From sequence record NC_105514.1: 64,000 bases of DNA; one strand, 5' to 3'. Made by a program: the position numbers and the translations under genes. This stretch comes from Escherichia phage JLBYU40. Positions 1-56,190 of this stretch are shown one piece after another. The notes below the pieces were generated by a model, which was not told the origin of the DNA, did no database searches, and saw nothing but the letters and a program-made list of their open reading frames with translations. Position 1 is the first letter of the stretch. The number at the start of each line of letters is the position of its first letter.

Positions 1-65
1 CACTTTCAATATGAATATTATACTAAATTAGAGGGCTTTAAGCAAGAAGATTTTTAATTTATTTA

Positions 66-542
66 TCACATCTCGGCCATTTCAGCTTCAGTAATAACTG
101 TGTTACACAATGCATCTACAGCTTCATTACCACTAATACCAGAATGTCCTTTAACCTTAATAAAGGTAGGATTAGTATTGTGAAAGTTGATATACTGCTG
201 TGTTAATTTAAATGCTTCCTGCCAAAGTTCTAGATTAAGAGGGACTTCACCATCTGCTTTCTTCCAGCCTTTCCTTTGCCAAGAAAACATCCAACTTTCC
301 ATACCATTTTTGCAATAAGCAGAATCAGTATAGATAACAATTGGTCTATTATCTTTTTTAACTGACCAACGTAGAGCCTCTACAATAGCCGTGAGTTCCA
401 TCTCATTATTTGTAGTTTTAGGACTATATCCAGATTTAGAACCTAAACGATCGTCGTTATCATCATAGACAATAAAACCCCAAGCACCTGGACCTGGATT
501 AGACTTACAAGCACCATCTGTATAAATGTGGAAAACCGACAT
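66..542 (-). CDS. rnh: Ribonuclease H (RNase HI-like)
   Basis: Motifs YTDGA, TNNxMEL, YTDS, HSGxxGNExAD. Start taken at ATG 542 (MSVFHIYTDGA), overlapping upstream stop as TAATG. Confidence 0.8.
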   Translation of the reverse strand: MSVFHIYTDGACKSNPGPGAWGFIVYDDNDDRLGSKSGYSPKTTNNEMELTAIVEALRWSVKKDNRPIVIYTDSAYCKNGMESWMFSWQRKGWKKADGEVPLNLELWQEAFKLTQQYINFHNTNPTFIKVKGHSGISGNEAVDALCNTVITEAEMAEM

Positions 543-18059: not shown

Positions 18060-18470
18060 ATGACTACTCCAACTCAGTGGACTGATGAACTGTTCGAAAA
18101 AATGTCTTCCGAATACGTTGCTCGTATGGAGCAATTCCCAGAGGATGAACGTCCGGGTGTTAGCATGGAAATTGTTAGCGAAATTGCCCAGGAAAATGGT
18201 GTAACTCCGAACGGTTTTCGTATGAAGCTGACTAAAGCAGGTTTGTATATCAAGAAAGCTGCTGGCTCTGCTTCTAAATCTAGCGCATCTACTGGAGAAA
18301 AAGCTTCCGGTGGTTCTCGTACCTCCAAAGCCCAAGCTCACGCCGATCTTCGCTCAGCATTCTCTGATGCTGGCCTAGCACCAGATTTTCTGGATAATGC
18401 AATTATCGACAAACTGACCGGTAAAGCGGCTGCTCATCTGGCAGAAGCAATCCGAGCTATCACTAAGTAA
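18060..18470 (+). CDS. Hypothetical protein with strongly biased host-like codon usage
   Basis: 136 aa; GCT/CTG/CGT/GGT-rich codons suggest high expression. Confidence 0.45.
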   Translation: MTTPTQWTDELFEKMSSEYVARMEQFPEDERPGVSMEIVSEIAQENGVTPNGFRMKLTKAGLYIKKAAGSASKSSASTGEKASGGSRTSKAQAHADLRSAFSDAGLAPDFLDNAIIDKLTGKAAAHLAEAIRAITK

Positions 18471-18813: not shown

Positions 18814-18836
18814 AGCCCCTATATGGGGCTTTTTGT
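18814..18836 (+). terminator. Intrinsic terminator
   Basis: AGCCCC-tatat-GGGGCT followed by TTTTTG. Confidence 0.7.
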
Positions 18837-20493: not shown

Positions 20494-20543
20494 TACATAA
20501 CCCTTTGCTACCCATCTACCATATCGGAATTATAAAGTGGTTA

Positions 20544-20572
20544 TTGACATTTTCGCCGCTTAGGTATATACT
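20544..20572 (+). promoter_or_regulatory. Sigma70 promoter TTGACA-N17-TATACT inside the ligase spacer
   Basis: -35 at 20544-20549 and -10 at 20567-20572. Confidence 0.6.
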
Positions 20573-20636
20573 ATTATCATTCAGTTGAGGGATAGAAAGT
20601 TATGGCGAGGGTAAGCAAAGTTAGTTAAAATTGTAA

Positions 20637-20665
20637 TTGCTAAATGCTTAAATACTTGCTATAAT
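20637..20665 (+). promoter_or_regulatory. Sigma70 promoter TTGCTA-N17-TATAAT for the ligB fragment
   Basis: -35 at 20637-20642 and -10 at 20660-20665, followed by the ATAAATTGATAAGGAAG leader. Confidence 0.6.
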
Positions 20666-20695
20666 ATTTATATAAATTGATAAGGAAGAAATTTG

Positions 20696-21475
20696 ATGAA
20701 AATCGAAATTCCAACACAATGTCCCTCTTGTGGTTCTAAGCTAGATCTTGTCAACGGACAATTATTCTGTCGTAATAAGTCCAACTGTCCAGCGCAATCA
20801 AGTAAGTTAATTGAGAACTTCTGTACAAAAATGAAGTTAAAGGGCTTTGGCCCGAAAACTATTGAGAAGCTGGAGCTGACGAAGATTTCAGAACTATTTT
20901 ACCTAGCCGAAGAAGCTTTGGTTAGAGCCGTGGGTAGCAAGGTTGCCGCTAAGTTAATTAGCGAATTAAATACTAAAGTTCGCGGAGACATTGACTTTGG
21001 TTCAGTTCTCGGTTCTTTAGGAATCCCTCTAATTGGAGAGGTTGCAGCAAAGAAATTATCCCAAAATTGCACCAGTTTTCACGATGTGAAGGCTGATGGC
21101 AAAGCTGGAGAAAACTATAAAGCCTGGCTAAATTCCCCACAAGGCAAGGATGTTATCGAATTACCGTGGAAATTCACAACTGGTATTAAAGGTGCTAAAA
21201 CTGAGGTCATCATCACTGATGGTCTAGTAGCCCAACCAAATGGAATCACGGTGTGTATTACCGGATCTTTGCAAGATTTTGCAAATCGAACGGATGCAAC
21301 AAACTATTTAGAAGGTCTAGGATATACGGTTAAGAAATCCGTTACCAAAGATGTCAAATACCTAATCTGTGAGGATGAATCAAAACGTTCTTCCTCATCT
21401 TATAAGAAAGCCGAAACGAATGGGATAGAAATCCTGTCGATTAAAGAACTATTGGAGAAAAATAATAATGTCTAA
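20696..21475 (+). CDS. ligB: NAD-dependent DNA ligase, C-terminal (Zn-finger/HhH/BRCT) fragment
   Basis: Four-Cys Zn finger CPSCGSKLDLVNGQLFCRNKSNCP and C-terminal BRCT-like GITVCITGSL; ATG 20696. Confidence 0.8.
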   Translation: MKIEIPTQCPSCGSKLDLVNGQLFCRNKSNCPAQSSKLIENFCTKMKLKGFGPKTIEKLELTKISELFYLAEEALVRAVGSKVAAKLISELNTKVRGDIDFGSVLGSLGIPLIGEVAAKKLSQNCTSFHDVKADGKAGENYKAWLNSPQGKDVIELPWKFTTGIKGAKTEVIITDGLVAQPNGITVCITGSLQDFANRTDATNYLEGLGYTVKKSVTKDVKYLICEDESKRSSSSYKKAETNGIEILSIKELLEKNNNV

Positions 21476-22235
21476 ACTGAACTGGAACGTAGAAGGTGTA
21501 ACCGAGTCTCTGAAAGCAAAAGCCACTGCTCTGGGTGTTGCTGTAATCTCTCAAGAACAAGTAGCTGCTATTGCTGCTGAACTGGCTGCTGAAACTGGCA
21601 AAGATGTTACTGCTCGCTCTGTTGGCTCTAAACTGCGTAAAGAAGGTTTCGAAGTACAGAAAGCTAACGAAGTACAGAAATCTCCGTGGACTCCTGAGCA
21701 GGAAGCTGAACTGGTTGATTTCCTGAACGCTCATGCTGGTCAGTATACTTATGCTGAAATCGCTGCTGCTGTAGCTGGTGGTCAATTTGGTGCTAAGCAG
21801 GTACAGGGTAAGATTCTGAGTCTGGAAATGACCGCTTCTGTTAAACCAACCGAAAAAGCTGCTGCTGTTCGTTCCTTCACTCCGGATGAAGAAACTGATT
21901 TTGTTAATCAGGTTGTTGCTGGTGCTACTATTGAAGCTATCGCTGCTCACTTCGGTCGTAATATCAAGCAGATCCGCGGTAAAGCTCTGAGCCTGCTTCG
22001 TGAAGGTCGTATCGCCGCTATGCCGGTACAGGAAACCTCAAGTGCTAAAACTCGTGAAGATCTGTTAGAAGGTCTGGATCTGGTTAACATGACTGTTGCT
22101 GAGATCGCTGAGAAAACTGGTAAATCTGAGCGCGGTGTTAAATCTATGCTGTCTCGTCGTGGTCTGGTTGCTAAGGACTATGATGGTGCCGCTAAGCGTG
22201 CTAAACTGGATGCAAAAGCTGCGGCTGCTGAATAA
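21468..22235 (+). CDS. Putative abundant DNA-binding protein with four HTH-like repeats
   Basis: Repeats of about 35 aa (e.g. VAAIAAELAAETGKDVTARSVGSKLRKEG, VAEIAEKTGKSERGVKSMLSRRGL); strongly host-optimal codon usage. Confidence 0.5.
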   Translation: MSKLNWNVEGVTESLKAKATALGVAVISQEQVAAIAAELAAETGKDVTARSVGSKLRKEGFEVQKANEVQKSPWTPEQEAELVDFLNAHAGQYTYAEIAAAVAGGQFGAKQVQGKILSLEMTASVKPTEKAAAVRSFTPDEETDFVNQVVAGATIEAIAAHFGRNIKQIRGKALSLLREGRIAAMPVQETSSAKTREDLLEGLDLVNMTVAEIAEKTGKSERGVKSMLSRRGLVAKDYDGAAKRAKLDAKAAAAE

Positions 22236-22252: not shown

Positions 22253-22286
22253 AAGGGGAGGGGGCTATGCTCCTTCCCCTTTTTGC
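22253..22286 (+). terminator. Intrinsic terminator
   Basis: AAGGGGA...TCCCCTT followed by TTTTTG. Confidence 0.6.
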
Positions 22287-22317
22287 ATTTAGAAGGCACG
22301 AAAGCGTGCAAAGGAGA

Positions 22318-27797: not shown

Positions 27798-29146
27798 AGG
27801 TTGTTATATCTAATAAAGCCTATTTCAAGCCCGATGATGAACTTTGGGATTATTGTAGTAAGCAAACCACTTATCACATAGAGACAATGACTAGTAAATA
27901 CCCTATTATGTATAAGAATAGTGGTGTTGTTGCCAAAGAGATTAAGTGGATTCCTATTACGCGTCTGGACTTACTGGATGCTAAAGGAGTAAAATACGAA
28001 TTAGTCGATAAACGCACATTAGCTCCGGTAGATATACCAAAACCTAAGTTCAAGCTGCGTGAAGAAGATCAACTTCCAATATACGAAGAATGCGATGATA
28101 CATGTATTATTAATGGTAAGCCTGGATTTGGTAAAACTATCCTAGCCCTTGCACTTGCGTATAAATTTGGCCAGAAAACGTTGGTAATCTGTACGAATAC
28201 ATCCATTCGTGAAATGTGGGCAGCGGAAGTTCGTAAATGGTTTGGGTTTGAACCAGGCATCATAGGTTCTGGGAAATACAATATTGATCCACCAATTGTA
28301 GTCAGTAATATTCAAACAGTGAATAAACATGCAAATACTCTTTCTAAGGTATTCGGTACTGTTATAGTTGATGAAGTTCACCATTGTGTGGCTACAACTT
28401 TCACTAATTTCCTAGAAATATCATGTGCTCGCTATAAAATTGGACTATCCGGTACACTAAAACGAAAAGATGGTTTACAAGTTATGTTCAAAGATTTCTT
28501 TGGATATAAGATATTTAGTCCACCGGTTAATAATACTGTTGCACCTACAATCCATAGGTACTCCGTGCCTGTTGAGCTATCAGGAAACCAAAACGTACCG
28601 TGGGCGTTACGTGCTAATGATGTATACAATCATCCTGAATATCGAGAGACTATTATAAATCTAGCACATTTATACGTGAATATGGGGCATAAAGTACTCA
28701 TTGTAAGCGATAGAACAGAGTTAATCCAAACAGTACTAGAAGCTCTTGCACAGCGTGGTGTTACAACATATGAAATTATAGGGGCAACCCCCTTAGATGA
28801 CCGATTAAAAATTCAGGAAGATATAGCAAAAGGTGGGCCTTGTGTACTTGCAGCAGCTCAAAGTATCTTCTCTGAGGGTATTTCCCTTAATGAGCTATCT
28901 TGTTTAATAATGGGAAGCCTCATTAATAATGAATCTCTCATTGAACAGCTTGCAGGGCGTGTTCAACGTATTGTCGATGGTAAACTCGACCCCATTGTTG
29001 TAGATCTAATTATGAAAGGTGGCACTGGACTAAGACAGGCTTCGGGACGTATGGCAGTATATCGTAACAACGGGTGGAAAACTATTACTATGACTCCGGA
29101 GAAAGCAGTTCAATTAGCTAAAATTGCATTTGGCAACAGCTTATAA
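27794..29146 (+). CDS. SF2 DNA helicase
   Basis: Walker A GKPGFGKT and DEVH box VIVDEVHH; 450 aa. Confidence 0.8.
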   Translation: MKVVISNKAYFKPDDELWDYCSKQTTYHIETMTSKYPIMYKNSGVVAKEIKWIPITRLDLLDAKGVKYELVDKRTLAPVDIPKPKFKLREEDQLPIYEECDDTCIINGKPGFGKTILALALAYKFGQKTLVICTNTSIREMWAAEVRKWFGFEPGIIGSGKYNIDPPIVVSNIQTVNKHANTLSKVFGTVIVDEVHHCVATTFTNFLEISCARYKIGLSGTLKRKDGLQVMFKDFFGYKIFSPPVNNTVAPTIHRYSVPVELSGNQNVPWALRANDVYNHPEYRETIINLAHLYVNMGHKVLIVSDRTELIQTVLEALAQRGVTTYEIIGATPLDDRLKIQEDIAKGGPCVLAAAQSIFSEGISLNELSCLIMGSLINNESLIEQLAGRVQRIVDGKLDPIVVDLIMKGGTGLRQASGRMAVYRNNGWKTITMTPEKAVQLAKIAFGNSL

Positions 29147-29158
29147 ATGATGTATAAT
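29130..29158 (+). promoter_or_regulatory. Sigma70 promoter TTGGCA-N17-TATAAT
   Basis: Overlaps the helicase stop codon. Confidence 0.55.
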
Positions 29159-29229: not shown

Positions 29230-29259
29230 TTGCTAAATTCTCTCGAAATCTAGTATAAT
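29230..29259 (+). promoter_or_regulatory. Sigma70 promoter TTGCTA-N18-TATAAT
   Basis: Followed by the ACATAAATTCGAGGAG leader. Confidence 0.55.
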
Positions 29260-29366: not shown

Positions 29367-29651
29367 ATGCTTACAGAGCCTGATGCTCACCAATTATTGG
29401 TCGGTTCCTCATTCATTTTGAATGAATCAACAATAGTTGATAATCCAAATAAATTGTCTAATAGACAACTGGCAGAATATCTAGGAATTTTAAGTCTACG
29501 AAATTATGCCGAATACAAGTTTACAAACGATCCTAGTTTGGACATACAATATGTTCCAGTATGGATACCACGGTTAGTAATCGACACTAACCCACTAATC
29601 GCAATTAACAAATCGAAATTAATCTTTAAAGAGGAAATAAAATATGGCTAA
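29367..29651 (+). CDS. Hypothetical protein (94 aa)
   Basis: ORF only; poor RBS. Confidence 0.3.
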   Translation: MLTEPDAHQLLVGSSFILNESTIVDNPNKLSNRQLAEYLGILSLRNYAEYKFTNDPSLDIQYVPVWIPRLVIDTNPLIAINKSKLIFKEEIKYG

Positions 29652-30417
29652 GTCTTGGGGCGAAACTACTGGCGGTTCTAACGATAAAATCGAATTCCTG
29701 AAGTTCAACAACGGTATCACTCGTGTTCGTATCGTTTCTGGTGTTCTTCCACGTTATGTCTATTGGCTGACTAATAAAGAGGGTAGCGTAGCTCCTTTCG
29801 AATGTCTCCGTTTTAACCGCGACAAAGAGAGCTTTGTTCGTGGTAAAGCTGATCCGGTTCATGAGATGGGCTTCTTTGAGAAAGAGCTGGATAAAGATGG
29901 TAATCGAGTTCCGCTGAAACCGAAGAAAAACTATATCGCTTTTGTTATCGACCGTTCTGATAACAAACTGAAAGTAATGGAAGTCAAAGCTACTATTCTG
30001 AAAGGCATCCAGTCTATCATGAAGCAGTTGAATCTGGCAACTCCGTTTGATATTGATATTTCTATTGAGAAAAAAGGCAAAGGTTTCGATACTGAGTATG
30101 ATGTACAGCAGATTGCTGCTATGCAGTTCCAGATTAAGCTGCAAGATCCTAACAGTGCGGAATCTAAGCAATATGCTGCGGATGTAGATCTGATTGGTGA
30201 AGCTATGTGTGATGAAGATGGCGACATCATTAAGTTCGAAAAAGTTCCTTCTCTGGAGCAAACATATCCGGTTCCTACCTATGAAGAGCAGAAAGAAGCA
30301 ATTCAAGCCTTCATGGAAGGTCGTGAGAATAAAGATGATGATGCCAAATCTGGTAACAGCAATGCTGGTTCCCAGAAAGGTATTGACCAAGAAGCTGCAA
30401 GCGATCTGGACGACTAA
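29644..30417 (+). CDS. Putative ssDNA-binding protein with acidic C-terminal tail
   Basis: C-terminus ...EAASDLDD typical of phage SSB tails; host-optimal codons; AAGAGGAAA RBS. Not confirmed by search. Confidence 0.4.
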   Translation: MAKSWGETTGGSNDKIEFLKFNNGITRVRIVSGVLPRYVYWLTNKEGSVAPFECLRFNRDKESFVRGKADPVHEMGFFEKELDKDGNRVPLKPKKNYIAFVIDRSDNKLKVMEVKATILKGIQSIMKQLNLATPFDIDISIEKKGKGFDTEYDVQQIAAMQFQIKLQDPNSAESKQYAADVDLIGEAMCDEDGDIIKFEKVPSLEQTYPVPTYEEQKEAIQAFMEGRENKDDDAKSGNSNAGSQKGIDQEAASDLDD

Positions 30418-30424
30418 TAAATAG

Positions 30425-30446
30425 AGGGGCTTCGGCCCCTTTTCTT
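30425..30446 (+). terminator. Intrinsic terminator with UUCG tetraloop
   Basis: AGGGGC-ttcg-GCCCCT followed by TTTCTT. Confidence 0.7.
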
Positions 30447-50248: not shown

Positions 50249-50668
50249 TTACGCTTTTGGGCTACGAAAAGTGTCTAAGTGGAACACTGTCTGGTTGATC
50301 CAAGAATCAAACGCAGCAGAGTTCTGCATGAGCATTACAGCATTATCGCGGCTAAAAGGAACTTCAGTAGCAGGATCAGCATCTGTTTCAATCAGCATCA
50401 GTTTTTCAACGTCACCTACAGTCAAACCGGTCCAACCTTTAATAGCTGCGTCAACGAAGGCTTCAATGAACTTATCATCATCCTGTACCTGAATCAAAGT
50501 ACCATTAACCCATTCATCGCGTTTAGCAGAAGAAATAACACGTTTAGAGGTAGCACGAGACATATAGTTAAGTTCTAATTTAAAGTTCGGCATACCTGGG
50601 TAGGAAAGAGTAATAGTACGAGTATCAAGAGTAATATCTTTTAAATTAATCATTTTTAATTTCTCCAA
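50249..50668 (-). CDS. Putative tail assembly chaperone (acidic)
   Basis: 139 aa; position. Confidence 0.35.
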   Translation of the reverse strand: MEKLKMINLKDITLDTRTITLSYPGMPNFKLELNYMSRATSKRVISSAKRDEWVNGTLIQVQDDDKFIEAFVDAAIKGWTGLTVGDVEKLMLIETDADPATEVPFSRDNAVMLMQNSAAFDSWINQTVFHLDTFRSPKA

Positions 50669-54813: not shown

Positions 54814-56190
54814 TTAAGCGGTAGCGTAAGCACCGGATACAACACCATTACTAAAGTAACGTTGCAGGTTAACACGCTGAGTAACGTAGTACGCATCACG
54901 CTGTTTACCAGCTTGGCGCTCGCGTTCAACGGTGACAGCACGCTGACGTGGCATTACGAAGTTATCTTTATAAACGATAACTGCGAACTCTTTCTCAGCC
55001 GCTTTAGCTGGGAAGTACTCAGAAACTACAACCGGCAGACCATAAATACGACCAACCTGACCTTGCAGTTTAACAGCATCGTTACCAACCTGTGCAACAT
55101 CCTGCCATTCTTCATCTTCCAGCAGATCGTAGTAAGCATCCATAGATACGATCAGTACCAGTTTGCTCAGTTTCAGACCATGACGGCCCAGTTTACGACG
55201 CAGTTTAGAGATAGTTTTAGCAGTTACCAGAACAGTACCATCAGCTTTAGCTTCAGTAGTAACTTTAGCACCATCATCTTCAGCCAGTTTCAACAGACCT
55301 TTCGGCTTACCAGTACCATCACCAGTCATAAAAGCTTCTTCGATAGAAACAGCGTGTGCTTCAATCAGACGCTTACGCAGCAGCGGCAGCAGGGAGAAGA
55401 TTGCATCTTCTTCAGTTTCATCAGTAATGAAGGACTTAGCAGCCAGTTTGTAGGTTTTAAAACTAATTTCAGTTAAGGTACCTTTAACTTCGTTACCAAC
55501 AGTAGCATCAGTACCGTAGGAACCAGCATCTACCCAAGTAGCTTTTCCAGCTTCAGGTTCAACCAGCATAGTAAGAATTTTGCTGGACATTGGCAGTTCA
55601 TCGAACAGTGCACCAACTACTAACTCTTTCTGTAGGTCACGAAGGATACGGGTAGAGAAAATAGTTTCGTAGTTTTCACTGGAAACCTGTACAGAGGAAG
55701 AAGTATTAACAGCTTTAACGTGGGCCTTACCATGTTCAGTTTCAAATACATCCTTCTCCATCATATAAGACAGGAGAACTAGTTTCTCAACTTCATCTTC
55801 AAAAGCTTCCTGAGTACCATACAGTGCTTTAGCTACGCTATCACCTACGAAGGAACGACCTTCACGAGCTGCTAGCAGAGATTTAATTTCATCCTGAAGA
55901 CCAACAATGGTTTCCTGCTGCTTTTCTACAGTCTGTGCGAACAGTTCTGCACTCTTTTTAGATTTTTCATCCAGGGACTTAACCAGTTCCAGAGCTTGTT
56001 CCAGTTTCTGACGATCTTCGCCAACTGCTTTAGAAACCAGGTCATTCATACGAGCCAGTTCTTTTTCTTCCTGCTCTTTACGCATACGTTCAGCTTCCTG
56101 AGCTTTCTGAGCAGCAGTCAGACCTTCCAGAGATTTAGCCAGATCACCCAGACCAAGTTCTTCTTTCAGCTTATTAATATCAATAGTCAT
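54814..56190 (-). CDS. Major capsid protein precursor with N-terminal scaffold-like coiled-coil domain
   Basis: 458 aa; N-terminal 150 aa charged coiled coil; downstream of the protease gene. Confidence 0.8.
   Translation of the reverse strand: MTIDINKLKEELGLGDLAKSLEGLTAAQKAQEAERMRKEQEEKELARMNDLVSKAVGEDRQKLEQALELVKSLDEKSKKSAELFAQTVEKQQETIVGLQDEIKSLLAAREGRSFVGDSVAKALYGTQEAFEDEVEKLVLLSYMMEKDVFETEHGKAHVKAVNTSSSVQVSSENYETIFSTRILRDLQKELVVGALFDELPMSSKILTMLVEPEAGKATWVDAGSYGTDATVGNEVKGTLTEISFKTYKLAAKSFITDETEEDAIFSLLPLLRKRLIEAHAVSIEEAFMTGDGTGKPKGLLKLAEDDGAKVTTEAKADGTVLVTAKTISKLRRKLGRHGLKLSKLVLIVSMDAYYDLLEDEEWQDVAQVGNDAVKLQGQVGRIYGLPVVVSEYFPAKAAEKEFAVIVYKDNFVMPRQRAVTVERERQAGKQRDAYYVTQRVNLQRYFSNGVVSGAYATA

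Follow-up and report, generated by a model that had tools for sequence, protein, structure and literature searches.

Why should a gene surrounded by AT-rich neighbours use the codons of its host's most highly expressed genes, and what does its product do for the phage? This question is raised by the gene at positions 21468-22235 of the 64,000-nucleotide stretch of DNA from Escherichia phage JLBYU40 (NC_105514.1), all of which was analysed and is called the window below. A reading of the sequence alone had singled out this gene and two others for their host-type codons, and had suggested that it encodes an abundant DNA-coating or transcription-switch protein with four helix-turn-helix (HTH)-like repeats, perhaps the DNA-binding regulator known from early T5 infection.

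The ORF is genuine, runs from ATG to TAA on the forward strand exactly between the limits given in that reading, and encodes 255 amino acids (table). Its product and D5 of phage T5 (T5.118, YP_006946.1) are equal in length and identical at 254 of 255 residues (99.6%), the single substitution being A25 here for D25 in T5, while the genes differ at 23 of 768 nucleotides, 22 of these synonymous. PHROG 323, "transcriptional regulator, D5-like", matches residues 1-253 with an E-value of 1.5e-71. In both phages the gene lies between ligB and the D6 helicase gene; the promoters ahead of it are shared, and the hairpin behind it is identical. The order ligB-D5-D6 (DnaB-like helicase) within the early replication module is kept in T5, YJin-2024a, Sugarland and PM135, and the same neighbours recur in T5 and other Demerecviridae. 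Matches to D5 were recovered in 466 phage records by DNA and 901 by protein, nearly all of them T5-like phages of enterobacteria, Vibrio, Proteus and Aeromonas. NCBIfam holds no family for D5, or for D3 and D11, the products of the other two codon-biased genes. Judged by its sequence, the gene is D5 of a Tequintavirus (T5-like phage), already known as the early double-stranded-DNA-binding protein gene of this group. The RefSeq note for T5.118 reads [quoted passage not shown] (YP_006946.1), and the function of D5 is likewise on record (McCorquodale et al. 1979, as cited in PMC12630848). Together with the identity to T5 D5 and the PHROG match, this bears out the suggested T5 regulator; given codons like those of the host's most expressed genes and four predicted HTH units, the guess was right and the finding an ordinary one. 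As a discovery it carries small weight: the gene name and the description of a DNA-binding product date back to 1979, and hundreds of phage genomes carry the annotation.

Table. Positions in the window of D5, its predicted units, its transcription signals and the two other codon-biased genes
Feature	Position	Strand	Basis and remarks
D3 (T5.113, "DNA binding protein")	18060..18470	+	CAI 0.62; N-terminal ~70 aa resemble HTH unit 1 of D5
Promoter-like TTGACA-17-TATACT (11/12)	20544..20572	+	promoter scan; within the equivalent of T5 P-K 28b, upstream of ligB-D5
Promoter-like TTGCTA-17-TATAAT, extended TG	20637..20665	+	promoter scan; corresponds to T5 P-K 28a
ligB, NAD-dependent DNA ligase subunit B	20696..21475	+	first gene of the unit; CAI 0.31
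GGAG, Shine-Dalgarno-like	21454..21457	+	10 nt 5' of the D5 ATG; read from sequence
D5 CDS (T5.118 orthologue)	21468..22235	+	255 aa, 27.0 kDa, pI 6.8, 17.6% Ala
Predicted HTH unit 1, aa 4-66	21477..21665	+	helices 11-22, 29-43, 49-58; invariant W6, R50, K55, L56, R57
Predicted HTH unit 2, aa 72-124	21681..21839	+	helices 76-88, 95-101, 109-118; invariant E97, Q113, G114, K115, L117
Predicted HTH unit 3, aa 135-184	21870..22019	+	helices 139-150, 155-162, 166-178; invariant E156, G171, K172, L174
Predicted HTH unit 4, aa 190-238	22035..22181	+	helices (205-207), 210-217, 221-231; invariant G223, L228, R231
Conserved C-terminal helix, aa 240-254, "GAAKRAKLDAK..."	22185..22229	+	conservation, AlphaFold2
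Intrinsic-terminator-like hairpin and T-run	22253..22286	+	13 pairs, 8 G-C, loop of 3; directly after the D5 stop
Promoter-like sites upstream of D11	29130-29158, 29230-29259		promoter scan; T5 P31A/P31B
D11 (T5.126), single-strand DNA-binding protein	29644..30417	+	CAI 0.66; T5 annotation, similarity
Terminator after D11	30423-30442		terminator scan

Codon adaptation indices (CAI) were computed with weights from 25 ribosomal-protein genes of E. coli K-12 and tufA. At 0.788, D5 shows the strongest host-type bias of the 65 non-overlapping ORFs of the window (mean 0.352, sd 0.118), exceeding even the average of the reference set (0.695) as well as the major head protein gene (54814-56190, reverse strand; 0.726), with D11 (0.663) and D3 (0.621) in third and fourth place. 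The host-type codon use claimed for all three genes is thus confirmed by the very comparison with host ribosomal genes that the earlier reading had proposed, and the codon counts of D5 agree: GCT encodes 39 of 45 alanines, CTG 17 of 19 leucines, CGT 9 of 12 arginines, GGT 17 of 19 glycines, AAA 17 of 22 lysines and GAA 20 of 25 glutamates. The bias persists in orthologues at 77% and 55% protein identity from phages of other hosts, those of Klebsiella phage Sugarland (0.769) and Proteus phage PM135 (0.526) each having the highest CAI of their replication module. The window has no tRNA genes.

Such a pattern might also be the residue of a recent transfer from a host chromosome, or follow from an Ala-rich composition, instead of being a product of selection for expression; the G+C content of D5 (0.470 versus ~0.39 in its neighbours) and the alanine content of the protein are in its favor. 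However, with the amino acids held fixed and codons drawn at the frequencies found elsewhere in the window, 5000 synonymous resamplings gave a CAI of 0.384 +/- 0.028 with a maximum of 0.516, which places the observed value at z = 14.6. The GC3 of D5 (0.31), low because the preferred codons mostly end in T, is phage-like and far below the 0.44-0.55 of the six E. coli controls whose CAI is at least 0.38, only gspC (0.38) among the E. coli controls coming near it; moreover, all homologues found come from phages or phage-like contigs. Resampling, GC3 and the conservation of the bias in orthologues effectively refute both a host-derived gene and an artefact of composition. The very high expression that had been read into these codons has indirect support from proxies, namely CAI (itself only a proxy for abundance), the conserved bias, the promoters and terminator, and the finding that the D5 homologue of Yersinia phage phiR2-01 is among the most abundant proteins of purified virion preparations (PMC8624392).

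The arrangement of signals suggests that D5 would be transcribed early together with ligB from the strong sigma-70 promoters P28b and P28a, with transcription ending at the hairpin right behind D5. The T5 RefSeq promoter P-K 28b (L001 11367-11441) maps to window positions 20524-20598 and the annotated P-K 28a (L001 11460-11534) to 20617-20691, and from 20665 to 21468 the promoter scan returned no forward-strand site of at least 9/12 that could serve as an internal D5 promoter in ligB. The ligB stop codon overlaps the D5 start (ATGTCTAA). The terminator hairpin has a folding energy of -25.6 kcal/mol (z -3.0; 0 of 200 shuffles equally stable) and is identical in T5, while Sugarland and PM135 have a hairpin of another sequence at this place, annotated as a terminator in Sugarland. 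As D5 is written nearly throughout in the codons of highly expressed genes and shares one mRNA with ligB, this message probably yields much D5 and little ligase subunit, pointing to differential translation within it.

The repeats of D5 are visible in the DNA as a family of four direct copies at spacings of 177, 180 and 165 nt. In the protein they recur with a period of 55-60 residues, of which ~45-50 form the folded core; hence the four units proposed earlier stand, but their proposed length of about 35 residues does not. Unit 3 is a clear paralogue of unit 2 by profile-profile comparison (probability 96%, E 1.7e-9), the remaining pairs being weak (E 1e-4 to 9e-3). R1-R2, R1-R3, R1-R4 and R3-R4 share the same register, R2-R4 spans only 11 columns and is uninformative, and one common register aligns all four units. 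The AlphaFold2 model (mean pLDDT 92.9) contains three full three-helix units, a shorter fourth in which a very short first helix of three residues precedes two full ones, and a C-terminal helix; its pTM of 0.50 leaves open how the domains are oriented towards one another. The HTH-like character of the units is backed by this prediction and by a fold search, and D5 is accordingly predicted to comprise four tandem three-helix HTH domains of the Myb/GcrA-DBD-like type, connected by short linkers and followed by the C-terminal helix, which might serve in protein-protein contacts or cooperativity. Of the 19 invariant columns, 13 map to the third helices of these units. A fold search of BFVD recovered D5 orthologues as the only full-length matches (TM 0.77), and other phage multi-HTH proteins in it superposed poorly (TM <= 0.27). 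A PDB sequence search with full-length D5 gave nothing meaningful, the best match being MYB21 (E 0.56), and no relative has been solved.

In the predicted model D5 has the tandem three-helix HTH repeats that characterize the Myb/SANT type, and the profile of repeats 2 and 3 weakly matches Myb repeats (MYB21, E 4.9e-4). Unit 2 opens with a Myb-like "W-T-x-E-x-E" and places W74, Y93 and V112 at 19-residue spacing (in Myb repeats three tryptophans or aromatics ~19 apart form the core), the other units retaining only the first aromatic (W6, F137). Against Pfam Myb_DNA-binding (PF00249) the whole protein scores 17.6 bits, below the cut-off of 24.4, and single units ~12 bits. Unlike the Myb/SANT repeats of c-Myb (R1R2R3), MYB21 and SNAPC4 and the DNA-binding repeats of Timeless, D5 does not appear to keep the three regularly spaced tryptophans, has four units in place of two or three, and is a phage protein probably made in bulk, not a eukaryotic site-specific factor. 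Each D5 unit is matched by different HTH families in Pfam. The only match above cut-off is that of Sigma70_r4_2 (PF08281; 28.7 bits, cut-off 25.7) to residues 204-230 of unit 4, covering profile positions 23-49 of 54, the HTH part only. Sigma70_r2 has no match in D5 at E <= 1, and as the region-4 HTH alone is found and region 2 is absent, we reject D5 as a sigma factor.

The DNA binding of D5 and its replication and late-transcription phenotype are on record in the literature and annotation. Combining these with the present results, we consider it likely that D5 is a very abundant early protein whose four tandem HTH domains bind duplex phage DNA, and that it is needed for replication and the early-to-late switch. 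We infer that the switch works through non-specific, cooperative, multi-groove coating. The conserved basic and glycine residues lie in the predicted third, "recognition" helix of each domain, and a single molecule could place several such helices in one major groove after another along the duplex, largely regardless of sequence. Side-by-side loading of molecules would then convert the replicating phage DNA into a nucleoprotein template, which the T5 replication machinery and the host RNA polymerase would require for DNA synthesis, early shutoff and late turn-on. Binding of D5 to DNA is reportedly sequence-neutral and cooperative, as is said to have been found by Rice et al. in 1979 and by Fujimura and Roop in 1983. 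If a monomer is assumed to cover ~40 bp and a burst to comprise several hundred genomes of 121 kb, full coating would by rough estimate take ~1e6 D5 monomers per cell, a large share of cell protein, implying that late in infection coating would be only partial. Counting against coating, the pI of D5 is near neutral (K+R 34, D+E 34), unlike that of classical basic coating proteins. The predicted helix-3 residues and single units offer concrete targets for understanding the early-to-late transcription switch of T5.

It is conceivable, though unlikely, that D5 is a conventional sequence-specific transcription factor whose four HTH domains together recognize one long operator of composite sequence at late (or early) promoters, its high expression being incidental or serving fast kinetics only. 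Tandem Myb-type repeats usually read specific sequences, as R2R3 of c-Myb do, and the sigma-70 region 4 matched by unit 4 is a reader of the promoter -35 element. Several records are named "late gene transcription factor" or "transcription factor D5", and the former label, which implies site-specific action, also counts against coating. However, a codon bias exceeding that of the major head protein and conserved in distant orthologues points to stoichiometric amounts, not catalytic or regulatory ones, and DNA replication also requires D5 according to RefSeq. Furthermore, early and late promoters of T5 are both strong sigma-70 promoters whose main difference lies in the discriminator, and no site for an activator is described in them (Klimuk et al., PMC7472727). 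The same study leaves the switch unexplained while late transcription proceeds through the sigma-70 holoenzyme, and this gives some room to another scheme, in which D5 would act on sigma-70 RNA polymerase in the manner of GcrA and redirect the holoenzyme to late promoters, possibly by sensing methylation or nicks. The pooled profile of the D5 repeats does align with full-length GcrA DBD chains, but at E-values of 0.12-0.15, which are not significant, and Pfam GcrA matched neither the whole protein at E <= 1 nor single units at E <= 10. GcrA (PDB 5yiu) combines one DBD with a sigma-70-binding domain, whereas the four predicted HTH units fill the length of D5 and appear to leave no space for a C-terminal domain of this type. 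We therefore regard a GcrA-like mode of action as even less probable than operator reading, and favor coating.

A functional analogy to coating by D5 might be seen in the histone-like p6 protein of phage phi29. The latter is small (~12 kDa) and binds as multimers through the minor groove, whereas D5 is a 27-kDa chain with four predicted HTH domains, and we found no sequence or fold relationship between them; the likeness is one of analogy and not of family membership. It lies in the functional picture, p6 being an essential early protein bound along the whole length of the viral duplex, where it stimulates replication and influences the early-to-late transcription switch (PMC4974454).

D3 resembles D5 in being codon-optimised and in having a strong early promoter (P-N26) upstream. 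It differs in possessing only one D5-type unit, which in the predicted structure is followed by a disordered linker rich in Ser, Ala and Gly and then by another small helical domain of a different kind. The N-terminal ~70 residues of D3 align with unit 1 of D5 with an hhalign probability of 87.6% (E 3.5e-6), and the predicted helix boundaries are nearly the same in both, suggesting a shared unit that makes a small addition to the known picture of D5.

The architecture of D5 also bears on why a type IX retron senses this protein (PMC13405049). Purified D5 is a monomer of 26 kDa that remodels a retron complex, and its expression on its own is mildly toxic; two of the substitutions that escape the retron, G53D and G232D (PMC13405049), lie within or immediately behind the third helices of units 1 and 4. 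One may speculate, with considerable doubt, that D5 and its one-unit paralogue D3 form a near-stoichiometric phage "chromatin" which does more than switch transcription, and which could be the non-specific factor keeping T5-like DNA free of methylation by host Dam/Dcm and restriction-modification systems and could help against nucleases. Such shielding, if true, would explain why a host defence (retron-Kva2) evolved to sense D5. A study of BF23 left methylation avoidance unexplained, a protective DNA-binding protein having been proposed earlier (PMC10644984). The ties of D5 to methylation shielding are confined to its abundance, its recorded duplex binding and its multi-HTH architecture.

Two observations concern the annotation of the region. 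The antisense ORF at 21441-21950 (169 aa, reverse strand), which overlaps D5, is treated here not as a gene but as a consequence of the many GCT and CTG codons on the coding strand, and the customary start codon of D6 is probably wrong.

The 255-residue ORF running from ATG to TAA is, judged by sequence, the already known D5 gene of T5 rather than a discovery: its product is identical to T5 D5 (T5.118, YP_006946.1) at 254 of 255 residues and falls in PHROGs family 323, 'transcriptional regulator, D5-like' (E 1.5e-71). The window is a portion of a Tequintavirus (T5-like) genome, with the T5 order ligA, ligB, D5, D6 helicase, primase, DNA polymerase, D10, D11 retained, and at the DNA level D5 matches 466 phage records; in 418 of these the identity is 95-99%. 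The two further genes with similar codon usage also have T5 counterparts: D3, annotated 'DNA binding protein' (133 of 136 residues identical), and the single-strand DNA-binding protein D11 (256 of 257). The three early-region genes with optimised codons therefore all encode DNA-binding proteins. The sequence-only reading, which had ventured a T5 early DNA-binding regulator for D5, is thus supported. Partial D5 and D3 proteins (P0018, P0038, P0151), 97-100% identical to T5-like sequences, are also deposited at NCBI under 'Enterococcus faecalis'; they lie on contigs of 531-669 bases and are probably phage contamination of assemblies.

Positions and properties of the features discussed (CAI, codon adaptation index; helices are AlphaFold2 predictions in D5 residues)
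Feature	Position (strand)	CAI	Remarks
D3	18060-18470 (+)	0.621	
Terminator-like hairpin	18814-18830 (reported on both strands)		after D3 operon; matches T5-annotated terminator
Promoter-like site	20544-20572 (+)		11/12 matches; within T5 RefSeq-annotated P-K 28b stretch, upstream of ligB
Promoter-like site	20637-20665 (+)		10/12 with extended TG; within T5 RefSeq-annotated P-K 28a stretch, upstream of ligB
D5	21468-22235 (+)	0.788	highest of 65 ORFs
Hairpin, 13 pairs, then T-run	22253-22286		directly 3' of D5 stop codon
D11	29644-30417 (+)	0.663	
Terminator-like hairpin	30423-30442 (reported on both strands)		after D11; matches T5-annotated terminator
Tail assembly chaperone	50249-50668 (-)	0.563	
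Major head protein	54814-56190 (-)	0.726	
D5 unit 1 helices	11-22, 29-43, 49-58		
D5 unit 2 helices	76-88, 95-101, 109-118		
D5 unit 3 helices	139-150, 155-162, 166-178		
D5 unit 4 helices	(205-207), 210-217, 221-231		
D5 C-terminal helix	240-254		

The claim that these three genes use codons of highly expressed host genes was borne out when the 65 non-overlapping ORFs of the window were scored with weights from 25 ribosomal-protein genes and tufA of E. coli K-12: all three stand above the window mean of 0.352 (sd 0.118), and D5 exceeds even the mean of the reference genes (0.695). With the D5 amino-acid sequence fixed, 5000 draws of synonymous codons according to usage elsewhere in the window gave a CAI of 0.384 +/- 0.028 (maximum 0.516), placing the observed value 14.6 sd higher. 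The preferred codons of D5 (GCT, GGT, CGT, ACT, TCT and GTT) keep its GC3 low (0.31), which argues against a host-derived gene. The bias is conserved among orthologues scored with the same weights: D5 tops the replication module in both Klebsiella phage Sugarland (CAI 0.769 at 77% protein identity; D11 0.765, D3 0.696) and Proteus phage PM135 (0.526 at 55%; D11 0.440), and reaches 0.767 in T5 itself. Resampling, GC3 and this conservation together refute the idea that the bias is artefactual or came with a gene transferred from the host. Beyond the early DNA-binding genes, the strongest host-type bias belongs to the major head protein and the tail assembly chaperone, the major tail protein reaching just 0.462; as the ranking follows expected protein abundance, CAI can be used with some confidence as a proxy in this phage. 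An antisense ORF of 169 aa opposite D5 (21441-21950, -) is most likely no gene but a side effect of the GCT/CTG richness of the sense strand, through which that reverse frame lacks stop codons.

Each of the three genes sits in a short unit that runs from a strong promoter to a terminator, a conserved layout that constitutes a minor new point. D3 and D11 are preceded by the known strong promoters P-N26 and P31A/B, respectively, and followed by terminators. For D5, the + strand scan found nothing comparable between the P-K 28b/28a-like sites and the gene itself, from which we infer that ligB and D5 share one transcript. The ligB stop codon overlaps the D5 ATG (ATGTCTAA), with a GGAG element 10 nt upstream of the latter, and the disparity in CAI (0.31 for LigB versus 0.79 for D5) suggests that the two cistrons are probably translated very unequally. 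The hairpin following D5 (-25.6 kcal/mol, z -3.0, equalled by none of 200 shuffles) is identical in T5, and hairpins of other sequence occupy the same place in PM135 and in Sugarland, where a terminator is annotated.

D5 (27.0 kDa, pI 6.8, 17.6% alanine) is predicted to consist of four helix-turn-helix units. The four repeats previously noticed were recovered as direct DNA repeats spaced by 177, 180 and 165 nt, by profile comparison and in an AlphaFold2 model built with a 56-sequence alignment, although their period is 55-60 residues and not about 35. Units 2 and 3 match clearly (probability 96%, E 1.7e-9); the five other pairs are weak, four of them in the same register and the pair of units 2 and 4 too short (11 columns). 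In a joint alignment all four units follow aromatic-T/N-x-E ... T/S-x-x-E-I-A ... G ... V/I-x-G/S-K-x-L. The model (mean pLDDT 92.9, pTM 0.50) predicts the domains confidently but not their mutual arrangement. Thirteen of the 19 invariant alignment columns fall within the third helix of some unit, R231, the last residue of that helix in unit 4, being counted among them; the invariant residues of these helices include R50, K55, L56, R57; Q113, G114, K115, L117; G171, K172, L174; and G223, L228. Pfam HTH families match every unit, with only Sigma70_r4_2 on unit 4 above cut-off, and a profile built from units 2 and 3 gives weak matches to Myb repeats (MYB21, E 4.9e-4; c-Myb, 4e-3) and to Timeless (5e-3). 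A sequence search of solved structures found no relative of D5, and full-length matches in a viral structure library were D5 orthologues only. The predicted four-domain architecture, resembling Myb and the GcrA DNA-binding domain (DBD) and with conservation in the putative recognition helices, is a minor new point. The linker after unit 1 carries a tandem 18-nt duplication (21643-21678; AAGGTTTCGAAGTACAGA / AAGCTAACGAAGTACAGA) encoding 'EGFEVQ KANEVQ'.

D5 was reportedly purified by Rice et al. in 1979 as an abundant protein of about 29 kDa that binds cooperatively to duplex DNA, and a 1983 study by Fujimura and Roop is reported to show effects on T5 DNA polymerase. RefSeq describes T5 D5 as 'DNA-binding protein; required for DNA replication and late transcription; also is involved in shutoff of expression of ...', the reference cited for this role being McCorquodale et al. 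1979 (J Virol 29:322). In virion preparations of Yersinia phage phiR2-01, the D5 homologue ranked with the most abundant proteins (PMC8624392). According to a 2026 preprint, D5 triggers the type IX retron-Kva2, its HTH is predicted to bind the retron msDNA, and purified D5, a 26 kDa monomer, was shown to remodel the retron complex (PMC13405049); of the escape mutations reported there (G53D, W74*, V149I, G232D), two lie in the third helix of units 1 and 4 or beside it.

Building on the identity, expression signals and architecture established here, and on DNA binding and phenotype taken from annotation and literature, we infer a coating mode of action: D5, made early and in bulk, would use four recognition helices in tandem to bind duplex phage DNA, loading side by side with little sequence preference, and the resulting nucleoprotein would be the template on which replication and the early-to-late switch depend. 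The closest functional analogue is phi29 p6 (PMC4974454), albeit with no structural relationship. By our own rough estimate, which takes a monomer to cover about 40 bp and a cell to contain several hundred genomes, about 1e6 molecules would be required to coat all the DNA late in infection, so coverage is probably incomplete or focused on active DNA. It is possible that D5 is instead a site-specific activator of late genes, but this fits poorly with both its extreme, conserved codon bias and the requirement for it in replication. A GcrA-like partnership with sigma-70 would accord with the fold, a likeness limited to the DBD of GcrA; however, it is without sequence support and D5 has no extra domain.

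Two minor new points concern D3 and D6. At its N-terminus, D3 carries ~70 residues that are paralogous to D5 unit 1 (hhalign probability 87.6%, E 3.5e-6), with predicted helices at 9-23, 31-46 and 50-59 against 11-22, 29-43 and 49-58 in D5; behind them come a disordered linker of Ser, Ala and Gly (67-86) and another small helical domain. Mutations in D3 were also present in retron-Kva2 escape phages (PMC13405049). The start codon of D6 is probably mis-set: the longest-ORF ATG at 22267, the same start as in the T5 annotation, falls in the loop of the terminator hairpin behind D5 (22253-22281). The Sugarland and PM135 orthologues start with 'MYNVQAVVLK', aligning with 'LFNVQAVVLK' in the window, which indicates that the true start is probably TTG 22324, which has GGAG ahead of it at 22313-22316, and that the hairpin is intergenic.
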